Sequence record: PP047755
Length of the DNA stretch: 64,000 nt
Source: Escherichia phage KEP1
Reading direction: 5' to 3' (one strand)
How positions within the stretch are numbered: the stretch's first letter is position 1; every line of letters starts with the position of its first letter. Shown in pieces: positions 14,487 through 47,918 of this stretch. The position numbers and the translations under genes are program-made. Below the pieces are notes generated by a model, which was not told the origin of the DNA, did not search any database, and saw only the letters and a program-made list of their open reading frames with translations.

Positions 14487-15272
14487 TTAGTTCTTTGCGT
14501 CTAAGAAGGTAGCTTCTTGTGATGAGAAAATTTCCTCGATATCCTCATCAGTTCTTGCATAGATATAAGTATCTGCATCACTGCCAAATGTTACTGCAAT
14601 CCTGTGATTGCTCTTCGACAGGTGGGTAACTAGAGCGTTACTTAGAGACATCTTTTCAACCGGAGGGTTACTTTGATGTATCTTACCTTTTCTTCGTCTG
14701 AAGAGGGTAACTGTATTGTCTGTGAACGTTACTACACCTGCAAAGTATTCCGGTTCACAGTAGTTCTTCCAACCTGAGAGTAACTTGTGGTACATCTCTC
14801 CTTCGTAGACATACAGATAGACATCTGCACTCTTCATCACCTGATTAATGATAACGGTGACGGCTTGAGGGTCTAGTCCACCGATACCTGCACCAATCAT
14901 AGGTAACCCAACTTTCTTCAACTGATTAACTTCACAGTACCTGTTAAGCTGTTTCAAAGATGATTCTAAAGCACTGTATCGGGCATCTTTGCCAGTCTTA
15001 AGCTGAGTGTAAAGGTTAGCTATACGGCCTTGTTTTAAACGTGCTACAGAGAAATTACCTAGTAAGTTCTCACAGGGCTTGTGGCCTATGCCACCTGCAT
15101 ACAGATAAACTTCTGTATCAGTCTCATATGCTTTTGGGTAAAGTTTAGAAATCTTGTCAGCGATACCTGCACCCATTAAATTCATACAGTTGCAACCGTG
15201 ACCAATGACGTCAAACTTACCTTTATCAAATGCGGCAAAGATATCACCATTGATGATTTTTACAATACCCAT
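14487..15272 (-). CDS. macro domain protein, TARG1/OARD1-like (putative ADP-ribosyl hydrolase) with C-terminal domain of unknown function
   Basis: GDIFAAFDKGKFDVIGHGCNCMNLMGAGIA and LPMIGAGIGGLD match the TARG1 signature (GDLF..HCISEDCRMGAGIA, MPRIGCGLD). Confidence 0.7.
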   Translation of the reverse strand: MGIVKIINGDIFAAFDKGKFDVIGHGCNCMNLMGAGIADKISKLYPKAYETDTEVYLYAGGIGHKPCENLLGNFSVARLKQGRIANLYTQLKTGKDARYSALESSLKQLNRYCEVNQLKKVGLPMIGAGIGGLDPQAVTVIINQVMKSADVYLYVYEGEMYHKLLSGWKNYCEPEYFAGVVTFTDNTVTLFRRRKGKIHQSNPPVEKMSLSNALVTHLSKSNHRIAVTFGSDADTYIYARTDEDIEEIFSSQEATFLDAKN

Positions 15273-23005: not shown

Positions 23006-23030
23006 AATCTTCTCCAGAAATTAAAAAGGC

Positions 23031-23054
23031 TCCCGTAGGAGCCTCTTATCATAT
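23031..23054 (-). terminator. rho-independent terminator
   Basis: Minus strand AGGCTCC-TACG-GGAGCCT followed by TTTTTAATTT. Confidence 0.7.
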
Positions 23055-23058
23055 ACTT

Positions 23059-24840
23059 TTAAAGCTGCTTGTCAATATTATTTCGAATATCACCAAGAGT
23101 TGTGTAGCCGAACTGCTCAGAGTCGCTAAAGACTAAACGTAAAGCACAAGCTGGATGCTCAAGTACATCTGCAAAACTCTGGAATCCATAGCCATCTACA
23201 GCTTTCAGGTTCTCACCATCCCACATAGGGGCTACACCACCAAAAGCAGACTTCTTAATACCACTATCTGTTTTAGGGTCTTTTGCAAGCATAATCTCTT
23301 TACCACCAATGCTTGCAAGAGTTGCTTTGACAGCAAATGCAAAGGTGTCACGAGTCATGTACTGGTAAGTGTAAGAACCTACACCAAACACTACGTTAGA
23401 ACTTGCAAAACCCATTTCATACAAACGCTTCAGGATTTCGTTTGCACGTTCCAACGTGATAGAGTCACCATAGATAAGGCCAATGTGCTCATCCAGTACC
23501 TTAAACCCTTTAGAGTTGATAGTTCCTCCAAAGATGTTATACAGGGTCTTAATGGCCCCATCAATCTCTGCTACAGGACGTGTTACAACGTTTGCAGAAC
23601 CAACCATATAAGCGTTTTTCAACATCACTGTATCAGCAACTTCAAAGTCTTCTCTGTCAACAACCATTTCGTAACCTTCTGACAGTAGCCATCCAGCAAT
23701 ACCATAATTGATGTTTTCAAGCTTCATGTTCAGAACAGCATTCAGCATTGTGTCGCTGGCTTCCAGCTTACTTAGGTGTTCGTAATAAGCCTTTTTAGCA
23801 CACTCTAAATGGATTGCTTTGTATCCTGTGACAATATGTACAGGGTCTCCAGAATCAGGACGAATTACCAGTTTGCCATCACGTTCCATAATCTCTTTAC
23901 GGAGTTCTGGCAATATGACTGATACAGTTCTCCAGAAGTTATAAGTATCTGAAACAACACTTGCAATACCAGTTGGGTAAGTTTTTGTTAAGAAACGACG
24001 GAAGGTTTGTAACTCACCTTTAAAGCGTCTTTCTTCTTCAATCAACTCGTTACCACCTTCCCAAGCAATGTTTGCACACATTACAGAATGTTCAGTGGCT
24101 GGTACAGAGCTACCAATATCAGAGATTGGGTAGGACTGTCCATAGATGCGTTTAGCTGTATACACAGCAGGGAAGCTATCAGTCCCTTTAAAGCTGGTTA
24201 AGTGGCCTACAGCGTTAAATGCGTCATCAGTAAAGCCGGACATACCACGCATAGCAAAGTCATGGCACTGATAAGGTAAATGCAAGTCGTTGTCACAAGT
24301 AAGGTCAGCCCACTTCTTACAGATACGTTTGTAGTGCAATGCAATAGTTGCAATGGTACAAGCCTTCCAAATCTCAGCAGAGAAAGCATCTTCCAGATAC
24401 CCCGCTACCCAATGGAAACCTGAAACAGTGTTCTGGAAGACAATCATCGGTACACGCATAGGGACAACTGTACCTTCTTCTACAGCGTAGACTTCGACTG
24501 GTAGATAACCTAAGTCGTGGAGTGCTTCCCAATGTTCTCGACCAATAGCATCTTTACCCAGAACACCGTTCATGACTTCTAAGATTTCGTCAATTGCTTC
24601 TTTTTTGTCACGTTCGAAGAATGTGGCGTTCCAGTGGTCTATCAGGTAATCTTTAACAAAACGTTGAATACCAAAAGCGACTACACCATCAATTGCTAAG
24701 GGGCTGTTAAACCACTTATCACTACGTGGTGTCAGATTGAACATCAAGTATTCTGTTGCACTAGGGTACTGGTAAATGTGACCAGATTTGTAAGCATCTG
24801 CGTTTAAACCTGCTGGTACTGCATAAAGTGATTTAGTCAT
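23059..24840 (-). CDS. nicotinamide phosphoribosyltransferase family protein (NAMPT/NadV-like; alternatively a Namat-type enzyme)
   Basis: VVSDTYNFW, IRPDSGDP, IYGDSI, VFGVGSYTY, KDPKTDSGIKKSAFGG match the NAMPT family (VVSDSYD, IRPDSGNP, IQGDGV, AFGSGGG). Confidence 0.75.
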   Translation of the reverse strand: MTKSLYAVPAGLNADAYKSGHIYQYPSATEYLMFNLTPRSDKWFNSPLAIDGVVAFGIQRFVKDYLIDHWNATFFERDKKEAIDEILEVMNGVLGKDAIGREHWEALHDLGYLPVEVYAVEEGTVVPMRVPMIVFQNTVSGFHWVAGYLEDAFSAEIWKACTIATIALHYKRICKKWADLTCDNDLHLPYQCHDFAMRGMSGFTDDAFNAVGHLTSFKGTDSFPAVYTAKRIYGQSYPISDIGSSVPATEHSVMCANIAWEGGNELIEEERRFKGELQTFRRFLTKTYPTGIASVVSDTYNFWRTVSVILPELRKEIMERDGKLVIRPDSGDPVHIVTGYKAIHLECAKKAYYEHLSKLEASDTMLNAVLNMKLENINYGIAGWLLSEGYEMVVDREDFEVADTVMLKNAYMVGSANVVTRPVAEIDGAIKTLYNIFGGTINSKGFKVLDEHIGLIYGDSITLERANEILKRLYEMGFASSNVVFGVGSYTYQYMTRDTFAFAVKATLASIGGKEIMLAKDPKTDSGIKKSAFGGVAPMWDGENLKAVDGYGFQSFADVLEHPACALRLVFSDSEQFGYTTLGDIRNNIDKQL

Positions 24841-24885
24841 CTTTTAATCTCTCTCAAAATGGGGCTTTGAAGCCCCTATAAACTT

Positions 24886-25767
24886 TCAATCAAGGTTTGC
24901 TACAGTAACTTGACTGTAATGTGTTAAGCCACGGTCTTTAGCTTCGCCTAAAGAGTTTGTAGTGTAAATATGGTCGATACCATTGTCAAGAAGGTTTTCA
25001 ACATCTTTAGAGAAGATACCATGTGTTACATAAAGTTCCACACGTTTTGCACCTGCTTCACGAAGATGTTTCGCTGCTTCTATGAAGGTTCGACCACCAT
25101 CACAGATATCATCCAGAATCATAACGGTTTTATCTGTCAAATCAACATCATCAAGGATTCGCATACCAGTAATTTCACCAGTCTTAAGGTTACGCACTTT
25201 AGACATTGTGATGTATGGTTTATCCACCTCTTTAGCAGTCTCTGCAACCTTCTTAGCAGCACCTGCATCTGGGGCTACTAAGTAATCAACCAGTGGGTCA
25301 TTTGCATAGTGGACTGCAATTTCCTTTTGAGGAATACTCTGGAAGCAGTTAAACAGGTTATCTGGTACATAGCTGTGAGGGTCAACTGCACAGACTGCAC
25401 CAAATCCCATTGCATTTACCTGTTTAGCAAAAACCTTTAAAGCTGCTGCGTCGCCTTTAAACATGTGACGGTCATATCGTGCATTTGGTAAGTAGTAAAA
25501 GATGACAGTCTTTAAAGCATAATCATGAGGAATTAAATCATCAATTGCTTCTTTAGCAAGTGCCACAGCAAACAATGTGTCTTTATCATAACCTTTTACA
25601 ATCATAATCACATTGTTAATGGATGATGCTGCATAAGCAGTAAAATCAACAAACTCTGGCGAAAAGTGTCCACCAATCTCACCAGAAGGGAATTGGATGA
25701 TGTTAAACTCTTCTTCATGAGTTCCTTTAGTTGGTGAATGAACTGTAACACGGATAGATGTTTTCAT
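24886..25767 (-). CDS. ribose-phosphate pyrophosphokinase (Prs) family protein; alternatively an ADPR-pyrophosphate synthetase-like enzyme
   Basis: Prs-family motifs: FPSGEIGG, YLPNARYDR, VDPH, VAPDAGAAKK, ILDDICDGGRTF, YVTHGIFS. Confidence 0.7.
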   Translation of the reverse strand: MKTSIRVTVHSPTKGTHEEEFNIIQFPSGEIGGHFSPEFVDFTAYAASSINNVIMIVKGYDKDTLFAVALAKEAIDDLIPHDYALKTVIFYYLPNARYDRHMFKGDAAALKVFAKQVNAMGFGAVCAVDPHSYVPDNLFNCFQSIPQKEIAVHYANDPLVDYLVAPDAGAAKKVAETAKEVDKPYITMSKVRNLKTGEITGMRILDDVDLTDKTVMILDDICDGGRTFIEAAKHLREAGAKRVELYVTHGIFSKDVENLLDNGIDHIYTTNSLGEAKDRGLTHYSQVTVANLD

Positions 25768-25779
25768 AGTTTTTCTCTC

Positions 25780-26058
25780 TCAATCAAAAGTTACGTTTGT
25801 TACTGCCATTGCAGATTTGCATTTTGCAGGGTCTACAACGTGATAAAGTACACTACAGTTACCTGTGCTGTCTGGTACAGGTTTAACCCATTGTTGCTTG
25901 ACAGTTGGTTCGCCTAAGTCTTTGTAAGAACCATCTGTAAAATTATTTATCATCTCAAGTGCAATTGGTTCTGGAATATGACCTCGTATCATGTACATCT
26001 CACAACCATTACCACCTTCACTAACTAATGGTAAAATCTCCCACTTTTCTTTAGCCAT
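25780..26058 (-). CDS. hypothetical protein (92 aa)
   Basis: ORF. Confidence 0.55.
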   Translation of the reverse strand: MAKEKWEILPLVSEGGNGCEMYMIRGHIPEPIALEMINNFTDGSYKDLGEPTVKQQWVKPVPDSTGNCSVLYHVVDPAKCKSAMAVTNVTFD

Positions 26059-26566
26059 TGTAAGTTGCCCTATAAACTGTCTCGAACTTCAACAGGAGAG
26101 ATATTGCCAAATCTGTATAGTTGTTGTCAAGCACATCTGGCATATTATTTTTGATATACCTCTCTTGCTCTTCATAGGTCATCTTAGGGATACTCAGGAG
26201 GCTATCTCCTTGCTTCTGGTTATCAGCTTTAGTTTGGATAAACCAGTTCGCACAGTGATGTTCGCCACCTTTTGTAACAGGTTTGTGGTGGCCTAGTGTA
26301 AATGTTTGCTTACCCGTATACCTGCAAAGATTGTTCAGTGTTGCAATGGTGTTCTTCACAACACACCATTCATACAGGTTATCTATTGTGTAGTGTGGGT
26401 AATAACGAACAAGTGCTCTTTCACGGAAGTTATCACGATTCCAAAGAACCATGTGATTAGAATTTGAAGGGTCATATTTGTGGGAGTCTATAAATTCTTG
26501 ACGCTCATCAAAGCTGAGTCTTAGAACTGACATTGCAACCGAACGTTTCAAGTTTGACAGATACAT
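26051..26566 (-). CDS. HNH endonuclease (free-standing homing-endonuclease-like)
   Basis: HNH motif GHHKPVTKGGEHHCANWFIQTKADNQKQG. Confidence 0.6.
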   Translation of the reverse strand: MYLSNLKRSVAMSVLRLSFDERQEFIDSHKYDPSNSNHMVLWNRDNFRERALVRYYPHYTIDNLYEWCVVKNTIATLNNLCRYTGKQTFTLGHHKPVTKGGEHHCANWFIQTKADNQKQGDSLLSIPKMTYEEQERYIKNNMPDVLDNNYTDLAISLLLKFETVYRATYNG

Positions 26567-26573
26567 TTTACCT

Positions 26574-26605
26574 CCAAAATAAAAAGGGAACCTTTACAGT
26601 TCCCC
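26574..26605 (-). terminator. rho-independent terminator
   Basis: Minus strand GGGGAAC-TGTAAAG-GTTCCCT followed by TTTTTATTTT. Confidence 0.65.
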
Positions 26606-26617
26606 TATAGTATCTGT

Positions 26618-26938
26618 TTACTGAGCTACTTTCAAGAGGCTTGTGAATGAAATCTCACTCTCATCCATAAGCTCTTTTGCTTTTCCAGTAACTTTTACAA
26701 AGTTATCTAGGCAGATAATCTTCTTATCTTTCTTGCTGTAGGTCAGTTTCACCTTTTCAATATCTTTCTTATAGCTTTCCTCTTCATTAAAGAGCTTCAC
26801 AGCTTCTTTGAATGGGAGGTATGAGCCATCATCATCACTAATAAAACCTGTACCACAATAGTAGAAGTTGTATTCTTTAGCCATAAACTGGCACAGTACG
26901 AAAATCTGTAATTTGCGAGTGTTATAAACTTTGCTCAT
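26618..26938 (-). CDS. hypothetical protein (106 aa)
   Basis: ORF. Confidence 0.55.
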   Translation of the reverse strand: MSKVYNTRKLQIFVLCQFMAKEYNFYYCGTGFISDDDGSYLPFKEAVKLFNEEESYKKDIEKVKLTYSKKDKKIICLDNFVKVTGKAKELMDESEISFTSLLKVAQ

Positions 26939-36523: not shown

Positions 36524-37024
36524 TCAAGCACAATTTGCTTTCATTACCTTATGGATTCTTTTTTCAGCATCTTCATAAGTTTCTTTAGTAATAAACTTAA
36601 TTGCTGCAATATTGGCATTGTAGAAGAGTCTGAGCTTAGAGTCAATCCTTTTTGTCATTACATCGAATTTATGTTGGAGGTTTGCTTCACCATAAACTAG
36701 GCCACCTTTCGTGTAGTAGGTTTGGATAATGTAAAAGTCAAAAAATTCTTTTCCAAAGCTCTCAATATCTTTTTTAACATACTCAGAAGAAGTCTCATAA
36801 GTCATCCAATCACTCTCCTTAGTGACTACCTTCTTCCGAGTCTTACCAGCAACTTTTCTTTTAGTCACACTATTAAGCTGTTTCTTACCCAAATAGTACT
36901 GTCCAGTCTTTTTGCAGTACACTAGGTAGACAAAACCAAAGTGCTTTGCTGGGTCAACTTCACCACATAGTGAAATCCAATGTCCATAAGTTGGACAACT
37001 CCCAAAACCTTTAACTTTAATCAT
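36524..37024 (-). CDS. GIY-YIG homing endonuclease-like protein
   Basis: FGFVYLVYCKKTGQYYLGKK matches the GIY-(10)-YIG signature. Confidence 0.6.
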   Translation of the reverse strand: MIKVKGFGSCPTYGHWISLCGEVDPAKHFGFVYLVYCKKTGQYYLGKKQLNSVTKRKVAGKTRKKVVTKESDWMTYETSSEYVKKDIESFGKEFFDFYIIQTYYTKGGLVYGEANLQHKFDVMTKRIDSKLRLFYNANIAAIKFITKETYEDAEKRIHKVMKANCA

Positions 37025-37521
37025 TCATAAGCTTCTCCGTGATTTGTAAACTCTTTATGGAGTTCTTCTCTTTTCTTTTTGACAACTAATTCAGCCTCAG
37101 CGATAGAGTCAAATAAACCTAGATGATAGCAAACTTTATTATGCTTGACTTGTGCAGCCCATCTACCTCTTTGCTTATGGTAATATACACCCTTCACACC
37201 AGATTTATTATCTCTTCTTTTGGCTGCATTACAGTTATTGTCTGACCTACTACACTCTCTCAAATTGTCGAACCAGTTGTCGTGCCTGATACCATTCTTA
37301 TGGTCAACAAATTTTGGTAGGTATCCTTTCATATACAAGAATGCCAGTCTGTGTGCTGCATATCTTTTCCCGAAGAGTTTTATGTAGATATAACCACTAT
37401 GATGTTTAAGACCCGCTACTGAGCCAGCTTTGGCCTTACCTTTTCTATTAACTAACCAAGTAAAGACCCCTGTTTCGGGGTCATAGTGCAGGTATTCTTT
37501 AAGAGTTTGTTGGGTTAACAT
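37021..37521 (-). CDS. HNH homing endonuclease-like protein with AP2-type DNA-binding domain
   Basis: LHYDPETGVFTWL, HRLAFLYMKG, VDHKNGIRHDN, GVKGVYYHKQRGRWAAQ; paralogue of 47385-47918; start taken at MLTQQ (ORF extends to 37545). Confidence 0.7.
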   Translation of the reverse strand: MLTQQTLKEYLHYDPETGVFTWLVNRKGKAKAGSVAGLKHHSGYIYIKLFGKRYAAHRLAFLYMKGYLPKFVDHKNGIRHDNWFDNLRECSRSDNNCNAAKRRDNKSGVKGVYYHKQRGRWAAQVKHNKVCYHLGLFDSIAEAELVVKKKREELHKEFTNHGEAYE

Positions 37522-38545
37522 TTGGTGTCCATCCATACTTATCAAAAGTGAAATCGTCTTTCTTATTTCTTTCCTGATAAGCTAAGAAAAAGTGTTGCTG
37601 CATTAACTCTAAAGGTGTTCTGGTAATTGTTTGACCATCCCACGAGACATAAGTGTATGACTCTTTCTTAGCATAAAGCTCATAAATTGCATCAAGACAC
37701 TCTTTGTAAGTGGTTTTACCTTCAAGGGCTTTCATTATAGTAACCTTACCAACACCCTTTAAACCGAAATAATTATCCGCATTATCACCAGCCACGGCTT
37801 GATAGCAAAGAAATTTAAAACCTACCCCAACTGTCTTCTTAGCTTTGGGTGTCGATTTTATTGGGCAATCCCAAATTTCACCAACGTTGTTATCAGCAAT
37901 GAAAATCAAAGGTGACTTTTCATAGGTCATATCAATGCAGTAAGTCCCTTCAGCTTGGCGAAGGTCTTTATCAATACTCATCAAGGCGGCCTTTTTACCC
38001 ATCTTTTCAGCTTTAGCAATAACGATAGAGTCGGCTTCAAATCCATCAAGAATTAGTTTGAACTCTGGTCTTGACAGAAGATATTCACGGCAAGCAACTA
38101 AGTGTGTTGGTGTGACAGCATCTTTACGGTTACCTTGATATTGGTGCTCAAGACCTTTAATGTCTTTATGTTTGTGTACACCTTTCTCTGTTAAGTAACC
38201 TACCCAAGTTCTTTCTTTACCAACAACCTTAAGCCATTCCTGAAGAACCTGTTGAGTAGCCATGATAGCTTCTTTTTCACTCTTAGCTTCTTTCCAAGTC
38301 TGTCTTTCCCATTCATCTTCATCAAATGCTAGGCCAAGCTCTTCTACAAGGATTCTCTGGTCTGCTAACCATCTTGCGGCATCTTTTGCATTATCAAATG
38401 GTTCAGATTCTTCTGCTGTGAGTTTATTGACATATTTATATTTTGCTTTCTCAACTACACAAGCACCTTTATAGGCAATACTATCAGAGTCAATAAAGAC
38501 ATGTGTAACTGAATCGGGAAGTTTTGTTAGTGTATACTTCTCCAT
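37499..38545 (-). CDS. flap endonuclease / 5'-3' exonuclease (RNase H-like)
   Basis: N-terminal HVFIDSDSIAY and GFEADSIVIAKA...LMSIDKDL acidic clusters typical of FEN/T4 RNase H. Confidence 0.7.
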   Translation of the reverse strand: MEKYTLTKLPDSVTHVFIDSDSIAYKGACVVEKAKYKYVNKLTAEESEPFDNAKDAARWLADQRILVEELGLAFDEDEWERQTWKEAKSEKEAIMATQQVLQEWLKVVGKERTWVGYLTEKGVHKHKDIKGLEHQYQGNRKDAVTPTHLVACREYLLSRPEFKLILDGFEADSIVIAKAEKMGKKAALMSIDKDLRQAEGTYCIDMTYEKSPLIFIADNNVGEIWDCPIKSTPKAKKTVGVGFKFLCYQAVAGDNADNYFGLKGVGKVTIMKALEGKTTYKECLDAIYELYAKKESYTYVSWDGQTITRTPLELMQQHFFLAYQERNKKDDFTFDKYGWTPNVNPTNS

Positions 38546-44156: not shown

Positions 44157-44413
44157 GTAAGCCTCTTTTAAGTAACTATTAAGTTTTAATCTTTTATCTT
44201 AACGTATTCTATACGTTATACTTTAAAGCTTTTTAAAAGCTATTAAATAATCTTTTAAGAGTTTTAAAGTATCTGTATAGTTAAACTGTTAAGTAACCTT
44301 TTAAGTAAAAACCCACTTCGCAAAGATTAACACCTTGTCAAGTGCATTGTCAACTTGCTTTTTATAATTTTTTGCAGTAATGTATGTGGTTAATGATTTT
44401 AGAGGGAGTAAAA

Positions 44414-46556
44414 ATGGAAAACGTAGATTTTAAAAACTTACATTTAGTTGGTGATACAGAAACTGATGGTTTACTCCTTGAGTTCACTAAAGTGCACGTA
44501 ATGGCTTTCGCAGACTATAAATCTGACGATGAAGAGCCACCTGTATGGGTCTTTACAGATGAGCCTATCCTCGGTCACAAGTATACCAAGTACATTAAGG
44601 GTGGTTTGCGTGAAGGTGTTGAGTTTGCGTTAAAGGCGAAACGTCTTTGCATCCATAATGGTCTCGGTTATGACTGGTGGGTTTTCAATCACATTGCACC
44701 TGATTTATGGAACTTTGATAATCCAAAGTGTAAACCGTGGAGTAATTTCTTTCAGGATTCTCTTATCCAGTCTCGTGTTCAGTGGATGGATAGGCCAACT
44801 CCAAAGGGTTATAAAGGTGCTCATGGCTTGGCTGCATGGGGTGCTCGTGTTGGTGTTCGTAAACCAGAGATTGAGCATTGGGGTGTATGGAATGCAGAAA
44901 TCTTCACTCGTGTTGTAGAAGATATTCGTATTAACGCCAAAACTAAACGGGCACTTGATAATGAGTATCTCAAGCTTAAGAAGTGTGGCATAGACACTTA
45001 TGAAACCTATATGCGAGCTAAAGAAACATCTTTCTGGATGAGTCAACAAGCTATCAATGGTTGGAAAGCTGATAAAGAGCTTATGGAGTTTCATGTAAAG
45101 GAGCTTGACAAGTTGACTAATGAGCTTGCTTCAGAGGTTGAACCACATCTACCTCCAACTATTAAGACCAAAGGTAAAGTCACTGGAGAAGAATTTGCAA
45201 AAGCTTGGAATGAGTATGTTGAAACATTTGGTCATGCAGATGGACTGAAAAGAATTACCAAGTATCCTAAGACAAAGTATCGTCAACAGGTGCGTAACGG
45301 TGAGATGCAGACATACGAAATCAAGCCATTTGGTAAGCCAACTACAAAGATTTTTAACATTGAAAAGAGAAATTGCTATACACCAACCAACTCTGTAACT
45401 GGTGAAGAGTACAAGGAAGGTTTTGTAGCAATGAAGGATGCTCGTGCAATTTGCAATGAGTTGAATGCAAAGATTGGTAAGAAGTGCAAAGACTGGAAGC
45501 CAGTAAAAACAGTTAAAACTGTGAAGTACTATAACAGCCATGTCGTTAACCACTTTGAGCTTGAGTCAAGTCGCTACACAGGTTTGATTGATGCACCATA
45601 TACACCAATTGAGTTCGAAGTTTCTCGTATGACTCAGGTAGCAGTTGTTAAAGACTACTTGAAATCAGTTGGTTGGATTCCAGATGACTGGAACTATAAG
45701 AAAGACTCAGATGGCCGTCCTGTTAAGGTTTGTCGTTTCAAAGACAACAAAAAGAGGATTACTAAGCACCCTAAATGGGATGAGATGGTTGAACGGTGTG
45801 GTTTGAGTTATGTTGAACATGAAGGTGTACAGTACATAGAGCATAACTGGTCTGTTAAGAAATACACAGATTTGCTTGAACCTTGCTTAATCCGTACTTC
45901 ACCAAAACTTACTGAATCATCTTATGATACGATTGAAGGTGAGCTTGGACAGAAGATTGCTAAGTACTATACTTTGATGCACAGACGTAGAACTATTGAG
46001 AACTCAAAGGATGATGAAAAAGGTTGGTTGAACCAGATTCGTCCTGATGGTCGCCTTAGTGCTGGCGCAATGGTGTTTGGTACTTCAACTGGACGTATGA
46101 CACAATATGGTATTGTAAACGTACCGTCTGGTGCTGCTGTCTATGGAGCACCTATGAGGGAGGTGTGGATTTGCGAGGAGGGGACTAATATCGTTTCAGT
46201 TGACCAGAACTCTGCACAGCTAGTTCTTCTTTGTAACTTTATGGGTGACAAAGACTTCACTAAAGCGGTAACTGAGGGTAAAGAGTCAGTAGAGTTCACT
46301 AAGCAAGATGACGGTAGATACTATTGCAAGCATCTCGATAAGTATCTTAATCCAGAAACTGACAAGTATCTTCGTTATGATGCTGAGAACGACCTCTACG
46401 AAGTCTACACAGGGACTGATGCGCATACACTGAACAGTATTTACTTTGGTCTGAACAAGGAAGAAGACATTGTTCGTTGTAGGGAGACACAGGATGAGGA
46501 ACTTCTCCACGAGATTACAAAAGGTCGTAAGAAAGCCAAAAATGGCATTTATGCGT
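44414..46556 (+). CDS. family A DNA polymerase, exon 1 (3'-5' exonuclease domain through start of motif B)
   Basis: GGGAG ribosome-binding site before ATG 44414; DnaQ-like exo motif LVGDTETDGL; motif A VDQNSAQLVLL (cf. DYSQIELR); frame ends in RKKAKNGIY, the start of motif B. Confidence 0.8.
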
Positions 46557-46824
46557 CAGTGGCGCATGTAAAACGTTGTGAATTGCTGGAAGCCTAAGTC
46601 TGTAAAGATATGGTAATCAGCAGCGAAGCCTCTTAAGAGGAACGTTCAGAGACTATCGAAAAGCATACTTAACGTATGAACTGAGTAGAGTAGGGTGGTA
46701 AGCTAATGACCATTCCCAAGTGCAACGGTAGTATTACTACTACGTGATATAGTCCGACACTCCGTAGAAATGCGGAGAAGTTCATAAGAGAACTGGTACA
46801 CCTTGCGAGTGTATTGACCAGATG
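46557..46824 (+). ncRNA. group I self-splicing intron (268 nt) interrupting polymerase motif B
   Basis: Classical P/Q/R/S core elements: AATTGCTGGAAG (46581-46592), AATCAGCAGC (46615-46624), GTTCAGAGACTA (46644-46655), GATATAGTCC (46746-46755); P1 pairs exon ATGCGT with GCGCAT (46562-46567) with U-G at the splice site; terminal G at 46824. Confidence 0.75.
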
Positions 46825-47381
46825 TATTGTTCGGTGCAGGTGATGAGAAGTTTGCAAAAACTATCAAGGCATCATCTACGGAAGAAGGTGCATTGACTAA
46901 ACAAACTTACTATATGCGTCTGCCAAAGATTAAGAAGTTACTTGATAGCTTAGAAGCCGATTTTAAGGCGTCTAAAAAGGCTCTGGAAGAGGTTTTTGGG
47001 AAGAATTCTTCAATTGCTAAAGGTGGTTATATCAGGGTCGCTGGAGCATGGATATGGTGCAAATCTCCACATAAACTACTGAACTACCTCCTGATGAGTT
47101 CGGAAGCACAGATTCAGAATGAGGCCATCAACCTAGCAGCAAGAAAAGCCTGTGAAGATGGCCTGACAAAACTGAATGCTCGAAAACCAGCTATCGGAGC
47201 AAGGTTACTTCTGGCATATCACGATGAAAATAGTTGGGAATGTCCAGAGGGTATGACACATGATATGAAAGCAATTGCTGACTGGATGTATGGACAAGCT
47301 TCAAAAAACTTAGGTTTGAGGAAAGAAACACTTGTAACTGGTACAGCAAAGGTTGGTAAGAGCTGGTATGAGGTACATTGA
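46825..47381 (+). CDS. family A DNA polymerase, exon 2 (rest of motif B and motif C)
   Basis: Spliced junction reads IYALLFGAGDEKFAK, same length as T7 IYGFLYGAGDEK; motif C LLAYHDENSWE. Confidence 0.75.
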
Positions 47382-47384
47382 TTA

Positions 47385-47918
47385 ATGGATTTAATTTTAC
47401 AAAAACGTTTAAAGGAGCTGCTGCACTATGACCCCGAAACAGGGGTCTTTACTTGGCTTCGTAGAGAAGGTAAATCAAGAGCTGTTAGTGTTTTTAACAG
47501 TAATTATGCAGGAAAGGTGGCAGGTAATATCCAGACTGATTCAAGTGGTCATAAACAGATTAGTATCTATTTTGACAAGAAAGCACATAAAGCACACAGA
47601 CTCGCATGGCTTTACGTGTATGGCAAGATGCCAAAAGGTATCATTGACCATATCAACGGAGACTCACTTGACAACAGGATTGTAAACTTAAGGGAAGCAG
47701 ATGACTTTCAAAGTGCTTGGAATAAAGGTAAGCTAGTCACCAATAAATCTGGGTACAAGGGTGTAAGTCTTAAGAAGAAGTCTGGTAAGTGGGTCGCACA
47801 GATAAGTTATAGAGGTAAGAAGATGTTTTTAGGTTATCATGACACACCTGAAGAAGCCCATAAAGCTTACTGTAAAGCTGCTGTGAAACTCCACGGAGAG
47901 TTTGCAAAACTAAGTTGA
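47385..47918 (+). CDS. HNH homing endonuclease-like protein with AP2-type domain, directly downstream of the intron-containing polymerase
   Basis: LHYDPETGVFTWL, HRLAWLYVYG, IDHINGDSLDNR, GYKGVSLKKKSGKWVAQ; paralogue of 37021-37521. Confidence 0.7.
   Translation: MDLILQKRLKELLHYDPETGVFTWLRREGKSRAVSVFNSNYAGKVAGNIQTDSSGHKQISIYFDKKAHKAHRLAWLYVYGKMPKGIIDHINGDSLDNRIVNLREADDFQSAWNKGKLVTNKSGYKGVSLKKKSGKWVAQISYRGKKMFLGYHDTPEEAHKAYCKAAVKLHGEFAKLS

Follow-up and report, generated by a model that had tools for sequence, protein, structure and literature searches.

A two-gene operon in Escherichia phage KEP1 is very probably the NARP1 counter-defence system known from Felixounavirus Bas63

In a 64,000-nucleotide stretch of Escherichia phage KEP1 DNA (sequence record PP047755; hereafter the window), we found two intact minus-strand open reading frames, 25767..24886 encoding a 293-aa Prs-like protein and 24840..23059 encoding a 593-aa NAMPT-like protein. 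Both lie exactly where the initial annotation, made by reading the sequence, had placed them. That annotation described the NAMPT-like gene as directly followed by the Prs-like gene, which is correct in plus-strand coordinates only; transcription runs the other way, from the Prs-like gene across a 45-nt gap into the NAMPT-like gene, and this is the published order of adps and namat. The locus contains the following features:

23024..23047, minus strand: terminator-like hairpin, 11 nt past the namat stop codon (consensus scan and fold)
23059..24840, minus strand: putative namat, nicotinamide ADP-ribose transferase, Nampt family, 593 aa (ORF and match to Bas63_0080)
24861..24876, minus strand: stem-loop GGGGCT-TCAA-AGCCCC, then AUUUU, in the 45-nt adps-namat spacer (sequence and fold)
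24886..25767, minus strand: putative adps, ADP-ribose pyrophosphate (ADPR-PP) synthetase, Prs family, 293 aa (ORF and match to Bas63_0079)
25780..26566, minus strand: two small ORFs in the orientation of adps, 171 aa (26051-26566) and 92 aa (25780-26058)
26584..26635, minus strand: promoter-like site TTGAAA-17-TACTAT, then a terminator-like hairpin (consensus matches only)

The 593-aa protein matches Pfam NAPRTase (E=1.9e-34), NCBIfam PRK09198 (468 bits, cut-off 405) and PHROG 448 (E=1.4e-201), and scores 24.9 bits with NAMPT_N, slightly below the 25-bit cut-off. The 293-aa protein matches Pfam Pribosyltran and Pribosyl_synth and PHROG 619 (E=8.4e-97), and TIGR01251, a broad subfamily, is the sole NCBIfam Prs model that it passes (124.5 bits, cut-off 113). 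These profile scores are far beyond chance and bear out the family calls made earlier for both genes. We also considered pseudogenisation and rejected it: neither ORF is truncated, and both have kept the residues that are invariant across the homologue alignments, catalytic ones included.

The KEP1 stretch is that of a Felixounavirus, matching 253 phage records with a top DNA identity of 98%. In this genus, NARP1 (NAD+ reconstitution pathway 1) was defined through deletion of genes 79-80 in Bas63/JohannRWettstein, which caused an approximately 20-fold plating loss on SIR2-HerA (bioRxiv 10.1101/2024.02.11.579819). In Bas63 infections in vivo, ADPR-PP was seen only when the genes and the defence were both present. 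The enzyme chemistry and structure of NARP1 were established with SPbetaL1 proteins; the published assays were run on these and none on Felixounavirus enzymes because the Bas63 protein did not purify. When we compared KEP1 with Bas63, we found that the Prs-like protein aligns with Bas63_0079 over the full 293/293 aa with 229 identical residues (78%), and that 580 of 593 residues (98%) of the NAMPT-like protein are identical in Bas63_0080. By BLASTP score, the KEP1 Prs-like protein appears nearer to the validated Adps enzymes of three phages (Bas63, 479 bits; Vibrio phage Gary, 120 bits; SPbetaL1, 100 bits) than to E. coli Prs (62 bits). Its K190 aligns with the active-site K162 of SPbetaL1 Adps, a lysine that is also present in Bas63 and whose K162A mutation inactivates the SPbetaL1 enzyme.

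In the NAMPT-like protein, the Namat core is conserved (D15, Y17, F195, R198, D221, A248, H251, R327, D329 and G458-D459); R327 is the equivalent of R306, and the residues that bind NAM and ribose-phosphate and the catalytic His are intact. The clamp helix described as specific to Namat reads GSXΦXΦXΦTRD, its third and seventh residues being aromatic (PMC12774641), and KEP1 Namat carries the adenine clamp helix motif GSYTYQYMTRD at aa 488-498. The corresponding segments are GAQTYQRNTRD in H. ducreyi NadV and GGALLQKVDRD in the Nampt-family chain 7yqo (annotated as pre-B cell enhancing factor related protein), and the aromatic clamp residues are missing in both. The selectivity-clamp loop of KEP1 Namat reads PRSDKWF, with K42-W43, and is identical in Bas63 Namat, for which a published AlphaFold3 model stacks the adenine on the residue after the clamp-loop Lys; on this model, the K42-W43 loop of KEP1 would supply the adenine-stacking residue. 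Among solved structures, those of SPbetaL1 Namat (9w5w/9w5x) match KEP1 Namat best in both sequence and fold, and the AlphaFold model of the KEP1 protein (pLDDT 92.7) superposes on them with a target-length normalised TM of 0.95.

These comparisons bear on a different reading of the locus, canonical salvage, in which NMN is the joint product of an ordinary PRPP synthetase and an ordinary Nampt, and NAD+ is completed from it by NadR or PncC-dependent routes of the host. The database names of both genes agree with it, as does the TIGR01251 score of the Prs-like protein, and Namat retains some PRPP-to-NMN activity in vitro. However, KEP1 Adps falls under all NCBIfam Prs equivalog cut-offs (for example 104.8 vs 296, 92.1 vs 297 and 64.5 vs 438 bits), its 62 bits to E. 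coli Prs compare with 100-479 bits to validated Adps, and KEP1 Namat has the adenine clamp that is missing in Nampt. SPbetaL1 Adps yielded no product in the ribose-5-phosphate/PRPP reaction, and the rescue of Bas63 from SIR2-HerA was independent of host pncC and nadR, the phage overcoming this defence even in a ΔpncC ΔnadR host. We therefore consider canonical salvage highly improbable. The initial annotation had held that sequence alone cannot separate Prs/NAMPT from Adps/Namat, and this did not stand, as orthology, the Namat-specific clamp motif and the higher Adps than Prs bit scores do separate them; the comparison of both proteins with characterised Adps/Namat and Prs/NadV that it proposed as a check came out in favour of NARP1, by the BLASTP bits for Adps and by the Namat crystal structures as best fold match.

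In a NARP2-type arrangement, a Nampt would work together with an NMN adenylyltransferase whose gene lies in another part of the phage genome, and our view of KEP1 spans only ~64 kb of a roughly 87-kb phage genome. The search for NMNAT also covered the complete Bas63 genome. Pfam scans of 38 KEP1 ORFs (most ORFs of at least 130 aa in the window) gave no member of the cytidylyltransferase/NMNAT family, KVP40 Nmnat and E. coli NadD, used as tblastn and phmmer queries against the window and all of the Bas63 genome, reached a best E of 0.15, and a regex scan of the six frames gave no match to the (H/T)xGH signature of nucleotidyltransferases. The complete Bas63 genome has no NMNAT by annotation or Pfam. 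In addition, a published survey of phages, 859 of them with NARP1, contains no phage holding both NARP1 and NARP2. Against this evidence, the NARP2-type reading has almost no probability left. The earlier observation that the window contains no NMNAT gene thus held under Pfam, tblastn and phmmer, and the canonical NadV/NatV route is, as had been noted, unsupported, given the missing Nmnat in the window and in Bas63 and the Namat clamp motif.

Although the catalytic C-terminal half of Adps is ~97% identical between KEP1 and Bas63, there is marked divergence elsewhere in the protein, mainly in the N-terminal ~150 aa. DNA identity to Bas63 is 65-75% over 25330-25830 and 90-99% in the flanking DNA. 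KEP1 carries a divergent N-terminal Adps allele, and two groups of alleles are seen among Felixounavirus records: 154 have 90% identity or more, and 91, Bas63 among them, have 60-80%. The sharply local divergence and the two groups speak for a reading in which the operon is NARP1 but its N-terminal allele alters substrate range, regulation or host-factor sensitivity relative to Bas63. In contrast, the residues common to KEP1, Bas63 and SPbetaL1 Adps are all kept, as is the near identity of the C-terminal half, and mosaic allele exchange is frequent in such phages, which makes a functional cause unnecessary. A functional change brought by this allele is thus improbable.

Around the two genes there are several putative signals. 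The 45-nt spacer as a whole folds at -12.6 kcal/mol (z=-2.8), its stem-loop is the same in KEP1 and Bas63 save for one loop base, and the namat ribosome-binding site GAGAGAG comes after it; the stem-loop may act as a weak attenuator or RNA-stability element. The hairpin past namat has a 10-bp stem with 5 G-C pairs and a T-run by consensus scan and folds at -16.6 kcal/mol (z=-3.8); immediately upstream of it, at 23075-23048, there is a promoter-like site (TTGACA-16-TATGAT, 11/12). From their sequence, the elements at 26584..26635 probably form the upstream boundary of the adps-namat transcription unit. Between this boundary and adps, the 171-aa and 92-aa ORFs have 8 nt in common, and the 92-aa ORF stops 12 nt ahead of the adps start. 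They belong to PHROG 3500 and 4726 (function unknown), have Bas63_0077/0078 as homologues and gave no match in a Pfam scan. Both are probably co-transcribed with adps and are candidate members of the pathway at most; Bas63_0077/0078 lay outside the published NARP1 deletion. Elsewhere in KEP1, the DNA polymerase gene contains a group I intron.

Some NARP1 operons have an associated ADPR-1''-phosphate phosphatase, Adpp, and the extended system NARP1-AP is recognised by a Macro domain within two genes of adps-namat; in KEP1, the two flanking ORFs on each side have no Macro-domain match. There is, 7.8 kb downstream of the operon, an Adpp-family Macro gene (14487-15272) for a conserved 261-aa protein with an N-terminal Macro domain and an uncharacterised, beta-rich C-terminal domain of ~100 aa. 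The Macro domain matches the Adpp family with an hhalign probability of 100% (E=2e-47), and the protein has P135 where 12 aligned Adpp sequences share an invariant Trp. In structure it is nearest to DarG, TARG1 and Poa1p alike, and the family takes in T4 Tk.4 and ~2,850 phage records, many of which do not have NARP1. Adjacency of the Macro gene to NARP1 in more distant relatives would have spoken for a functional link, but in two metagenomic contigs whose Namat is ~50% identical the Macro gene again lies 9-10 kb downstream, a spacing that ruled out an ancestral adjacency. One proposal, which we regard as rather unlikely, is that the extended pathway is "split" in Felixounaviruses, with the Macro protein feeding the distant adps-namat operon in trans. 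If the protein did convert ADPR-1''-phosphate to ADPR in trans, protection would extend to NAD+ phosphorylases of the RES type (aRES). Such an arrangement would have escaped the published survey, which covered two genes to each side of an operon and listed no Escherichia phage; in the literature, we found no test of Bas63 or another Felixounavirus against aRES and no listing of one as a NARP1-associated Macro carrier.

Taken together, these data indicate that the KEP1 pair is very probably a two-gene NARP1 counter-defence operon, orthologous to the founding Bas63 operon, and by analogy it would have the same NARP1 activity as its orthologues. The NARP1-type reading first proposed for the locus is upheld by orthology to Bas63 genes 79-80, synteny, the Adps lysine, the Namat core and the clamp motif. 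A host defence (SIR2-HerA, type I Thoeris, DSR1/DSR2 or SEFIR) would cleave NAD+ to ADP-ribose and nicotinamide; Adps (25767..24886) would then make ADPR-PP by pyrophosphorylating the free ribose of ADP-ribose at the expense of ATP, and Namat (24840..23059) would swap the pyrophosphate of ADPR-PP for nicotinamide, giving NAD+ directly. In this scheme, NAD+ would be rebuilt without NMN and without an adenylyltransferase.

The system is already known and published for the Felixounavirus genus, and our analysis adds no new biology: NARP1 was discovered in this genus and the gene pair is present in ~250 sequenced relatives. It does confirm that reading raw sequence can flag a real counter-defence module. 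KEP1 is predicted to resist SIR2-HerA, type I Thoeris, DSR1/2 and SEFIR, the defences whose cleavage of NAD+ leaves ADPR and nicotinamide. It is also predicted to be sensitive to aRES, unless the Macro protein encoded at a distance makes up for this. Both predictions are relevant to the choice of therapeutic Felixounaviruses.

Among known systems, Bas63 NARP1 (bas63_0079 adps and bas63_0080 namat, MZ501086.1) shares with KEP1 the gene order, the 293/593 aa lengths, the 45-nt spacer and the flanks, with NrdG upstream and rIIA/rIIB downstream; it differs in having the other allele in the N-terminal ~150 aa of Adps and a small gene, bas63_0081, just downstream of namat that is missing from the KEP1 window. 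SPbetaL1 NARP1 (Adps gene 190, Namat gene 191) shares the two-gene order, the catalytic lysine, the Namat core and the clamp helix, with identities in three-way alignments of 33% for Adps and 47% for Namat. Compared to SPbetaL1, KEP1 Namat has extra segments of ~15 aa (aa ~258-272) and ~85 aa (aa ~340-426), the longer of which is Ounavirinae-specific, and in the clamp loop K42-W43 where SPbetaL1 Namat has R40. In Vibrio phage Gary NARP1-AP (Adps, the Macro-domain phosphatase Adpp and Namat), Adps is 38% identical to that of KEP1 and the Macro gene is in the operon, whereas the KEP1 Macro gene lies outside it and encodes an extra C-terminal domain. KVP40 NARP2 (Nampt NadV and Nmnat NatV) likewise restores NAD+ during infection with a Nampt-family enzyme; in contrast, KEP1 has no Nmnat in the window, has the Namat clamp motif that Nampt-type enzymes lack and pairs its enzyme with a Prs-family partner. 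Finally, the cellular enzymes (E. coli Prs, 29% identical to KEP1 Adps; H. ducreyi NadV 9ke8; human NAMPT) share the folds and the core phosphoribosyl-transfer chemistry but act on R5P/PRPP, while the NARP1 orthologues, according to the literature, act on ADPR/ADPR-PP.

The two genes proposed in the initial annotation are both intact, and their coordinates are exact:
23059-24840, minus strand: namat, the NAMPT-like gene, an intact ORF of 593 aa
24886-25767, minus strand: adps, the Prs-like gene, an intact ORF of 293 aa
They are adjacent, as described, with a gap of 45 nt; however, the wording of a NAMPT-like gene followed by a Prs-like gene does not hold for strand and gene order, since both ORFs are on the minus strand and the Prs-like gene is therefore transcribed first and the NAMPT-like gene second. 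The 593-aa protein matches Pfam NAPRTase (E=1.9e-34), NCBIfam PRK09198 (468 bits, cut-off 405) and PHROG 448 (E=1.4e-201), and its Pfam NAMPT_N match of 24.9 bits is slightly below the 25-bit cut-off. The 293-aa protein matches Pfam Pribosyltran and Pribosyl_synth, the broad subfamily model TIGR01251 (124.5 bits, cut-off 113) and PHROG 619 (E=8.4e-97), and it misses all NCBIfam Prs equivalog cut-offs widely (e.g. 92 vs 297). Judged by sequence, membership in the NAMPT-like and Prs-like families is unambiguous, and the Pfam, NCBIfam and PHROG matches agree with the families first assigned.

To place the proteins within these families, we compared them with the enzymes of NARP1, the phage pathway in which Adps (ADP-ribose pyrophosphate synthetase) and Namat (nicotinamide ADP-ribose transferase) rebuild NAD+. 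The 293-aa protein scores 479 bits against Adps of phage Bas63, 120 against Adps of Vibrio phage Gary, 100 against Adps of Bacillus phage SPbetaL1 and 62 against E. coli Prs. Its K190 aligns with SPbetaL1 Adps K162, whose replacement by alanine gives an inactive mutant (bioRxiv 10.1101/2024.02.11.579819). In the 593-aa protein, D15, Y17, F195, R198, D221, A248, the catalytic H251, R327 (the equivalent of R306), D329 and G458-D459 are conserved with SPbetaL1 Namat, where crystal structures show this set in contact with nicotinamide, the ribose-phosphate of NMN and the AMP phosphate. Namat enzymes are distinguished by a clamp helix motif, GSXΦXΦXΦTRD, whose positions 3 and 7 are aromatic (PMC12774641); the window protein reads GSYTYQYMTRD, whereas the same site is GAQTYQRNTRD in the true Nampt of H. 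ducreyi (HdNadV) and GGALLQKVDRD in the Nampt-family chain 7yqo. The clamp loop carries K42-W43, identical to Bas63 Namat, in which, according to the published paper's predicted model, the residue that follows the Lys stacks on the adenine. An AlphaFold model of the protein (37 homologues, mean pLDDT 92.7) has the Namat crystals 9w5x/9w5w as its best PDB neighbours (TM 0.95 normalised to target length), with HdNadV and human NAMPT ranking behind them. The initial annotation had proposed a profile and structure comparison of both proteins, and the Adps scores, the clamp motif and the fold match side with Adps/Namat.

The crystallised SPbetaL1 Namat lacks an insertion of ~85 aa that Ounavirinae Namat carries after the DSGDP loop (aa ~340-426, ~23563-23823, minus strand). 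The segment is absent from Nampt too, is modelled as a small alpha/beta subdomain (pLDDT ~90-96) and is restricted to 253 Ounavirinae records; other Namats have different, unrelated inserts at this site, and the text of the Namat structural paper never uses the term 'insertion'.

No NMN adenylyltransferase (Nmnat) gene had been seen in the window, and our searches bear this out. Pfam found no NMNAT or cytidylyltransferase family among 38 window ORFs, which include most of those of at least 130 aa, and tblastn and phmmer searches of the window and of the whole Bas63 genome with E. coli NadD and the Nmnat of Vibrio phage KVP40 (sequence from the aRES preprint supplement) reached E=0.15 at best. 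In KEP1 these searches cover the window, and ~23 kb of the phage lies outside it; for Bas63, neither the annotation nor Pfam scans of the larger ORFs without an assignment that lie beyond the region equivalent to the window revealed an adenylyltransferase. NARP1 was defined by deletion of genes 79-80 in the Felixounavirus Bas63 (JohannRWettstein, MZ501086.1), which causes a ~20-fold plating loss on SIR2-HerA; ADPR-PP was seen only with these genes and the defence together, and host pncC and nadR were not required for rescue (bioRxiv 10.1101/2024.02.11.579819). Since the Bas63 protein could not be purified, the enzymology was carried out on the SPbetaL1 homologues (bioRxiv 10.1101/2024.02.11.579819). 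Two rival routes, canonical PRPP/NMN salvage that the host completes and a NARP2-type pathway in which Nampt works with a phage Nmnat, are contradicted by the Bas63 result in a ΔpncC ΔnadR host, the clamp motif, the sequence affinities of Adps and the lack of an Nmnat in the window and in Bas63. In the NARP1 route, a defence NADase would release ADPR and nicotinamide, Adps would transfer the pyrophosphate of ATP to ADPR to give ADPR-PP, and Namat would let nicotinamide displace that pyrophosphate to give NAD+; we infer these steps from the orthologues, the window itself holding only sequence features of the mechanism.

Two predicted hairpins flank four tightly packed minus-strand ORFs, in the order 171-aa, 92-aa (homologues of Bas63_0077/0078), adps and namat:
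26606-26584, minus strand: terminator-like hairpin (consensus and folding prediction), with a sigma-70-like promoter match directly before it
23047-23024, minus strand: terminator-like hairpin (same basis), likewise with a sigma-70-like promoter match directly before it
Such a hairpin could terminate upstream transcripts, and those of the overlapping promoter would begin inside it. A compact intergenic layout of sigma-70-like promoter, GC-rich hairpin with T-run, ribosome-binding site and ATG occurs twice (26635-26584 and 23075-23024, minus strand). Sequence and folding prediction also place a conserved GC-rich stem-loop within the adps-namat spacer.

Some phages carry NARP1-AP, an operon with an added Macro phosphatase, Adpp, which acts on ADPR-1''-phosphate, the product of the RES-type defence aRES that NARP1 cannot use (10.64898/2026.01.28.702374). 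We found a Macro ORF in the window:
14487-15272, minus strand: 261-aa Macro protein, homologue of the Bas63_0095 'putative phosphatase' (Pfam PF01661, 32.3 bits, cut-off 22)
Its N-terminal 159 aa share 26% identity with the characterised Adpp of phage Gary, and their hhalign alignment to the NARP1-associated Adpp family has a probability of 100% (E=2e-47), so that this domain is, by sequence comparison, homologous to Adpp. The gene is 7.8 kb from the NARP1 genes and would therefore escape the published survey, a January 2026 preprint that covered at most 2 genes from each operon and has no Escherichia phages in its table (10.64898/2026.01.28.702374). Against a specific Adpp link, the family also takes in T4 Tk.4 and ~2,850 phage records, of which many lack NARP1; Pro replaces the Trp that is invariant among the 12 Adpp sequences aligned; and in distant relatives the gene is still 9-10 kb from namat. 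The protein structurally resembles DarG, TARG1 and Poa1p. It is conserved across Ounavirinae, and its C-terminal ~100 aa form a beta-rich domain.

Elsewhere in the window, the family A DNA polymerase gene (44384-47381) is interrupted by a group I intron (46494-46777, plus strand; Rfam RF00028, 64.2 bits, E=5.5e-14). Against the Bas63 polymerase, exon 1 has 96% identity to aa 1-724 and exon 2 (46827-47381) only 78% to aa 726-909; a homing endonuclease ORF of HNH_3+AP2 type (47385-47918) comes next. In Bas63, in contrast, the polymerase is uninterrupted and nrdD, intact in the window, is interrupted. The replication gene block contains two adjacent ORFs of homing-endonuclease type (36524-37545, minus strand):
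36524-37024, minus strand: GIY-YIG SegE-like ORF
37021-37545, minus strand: HNH_3+AP2 ORF

The 2.7-kb region is matched by 253 phage records (best identity 98%), nearly all from Escherichia, Salmonella, Shigella or Citrobacter phages of Felixounavirus/Ounavirinae type. The surrounding 24 kb shares 91-94% identity with the closest genomes, and the neighbouring genes are the usual Felixounavirus block, with NrdA/B/D/G upstream and rIIA/rIIB downstream. Compared with Bas63, Namat is identical at 580/593 positions (98%, Bas63_0080) and Adps at 229/293 (78%, Bas63_0079); both protein lengths and the spacer length are equal, the spacer hairpin is conserved and the flanking regions are collinear. Over its first ~150 aa, Adps is of a different allele from that of Bas63. 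Across phage records Adps forms two allele groups, 154 at ≥90% and 91 at 60-80%, with Bas63 in the second; in the DNA, the 5' part of adps (25330-25830, minus strand) is a sharply bounded block of 65-75% identity to Bas63 between flanks of 90-99%. Two small Bas63 genes are also missing from the window: bas63_0081 (114 aa, no match in a Pfam scan), just downstream of namat (~23008), and, close to nrdG (~27832), bas63_0072, whose 99 aa match DUF5499 weakly. Taken together, the Bas63 orthology, the Adps scores with K190, the Namat clamp motif and the negative Nmnat searches support the NARP1-type interpretation first put forward, with the gene pair being the already known NARP1 in the genus of its discovery.
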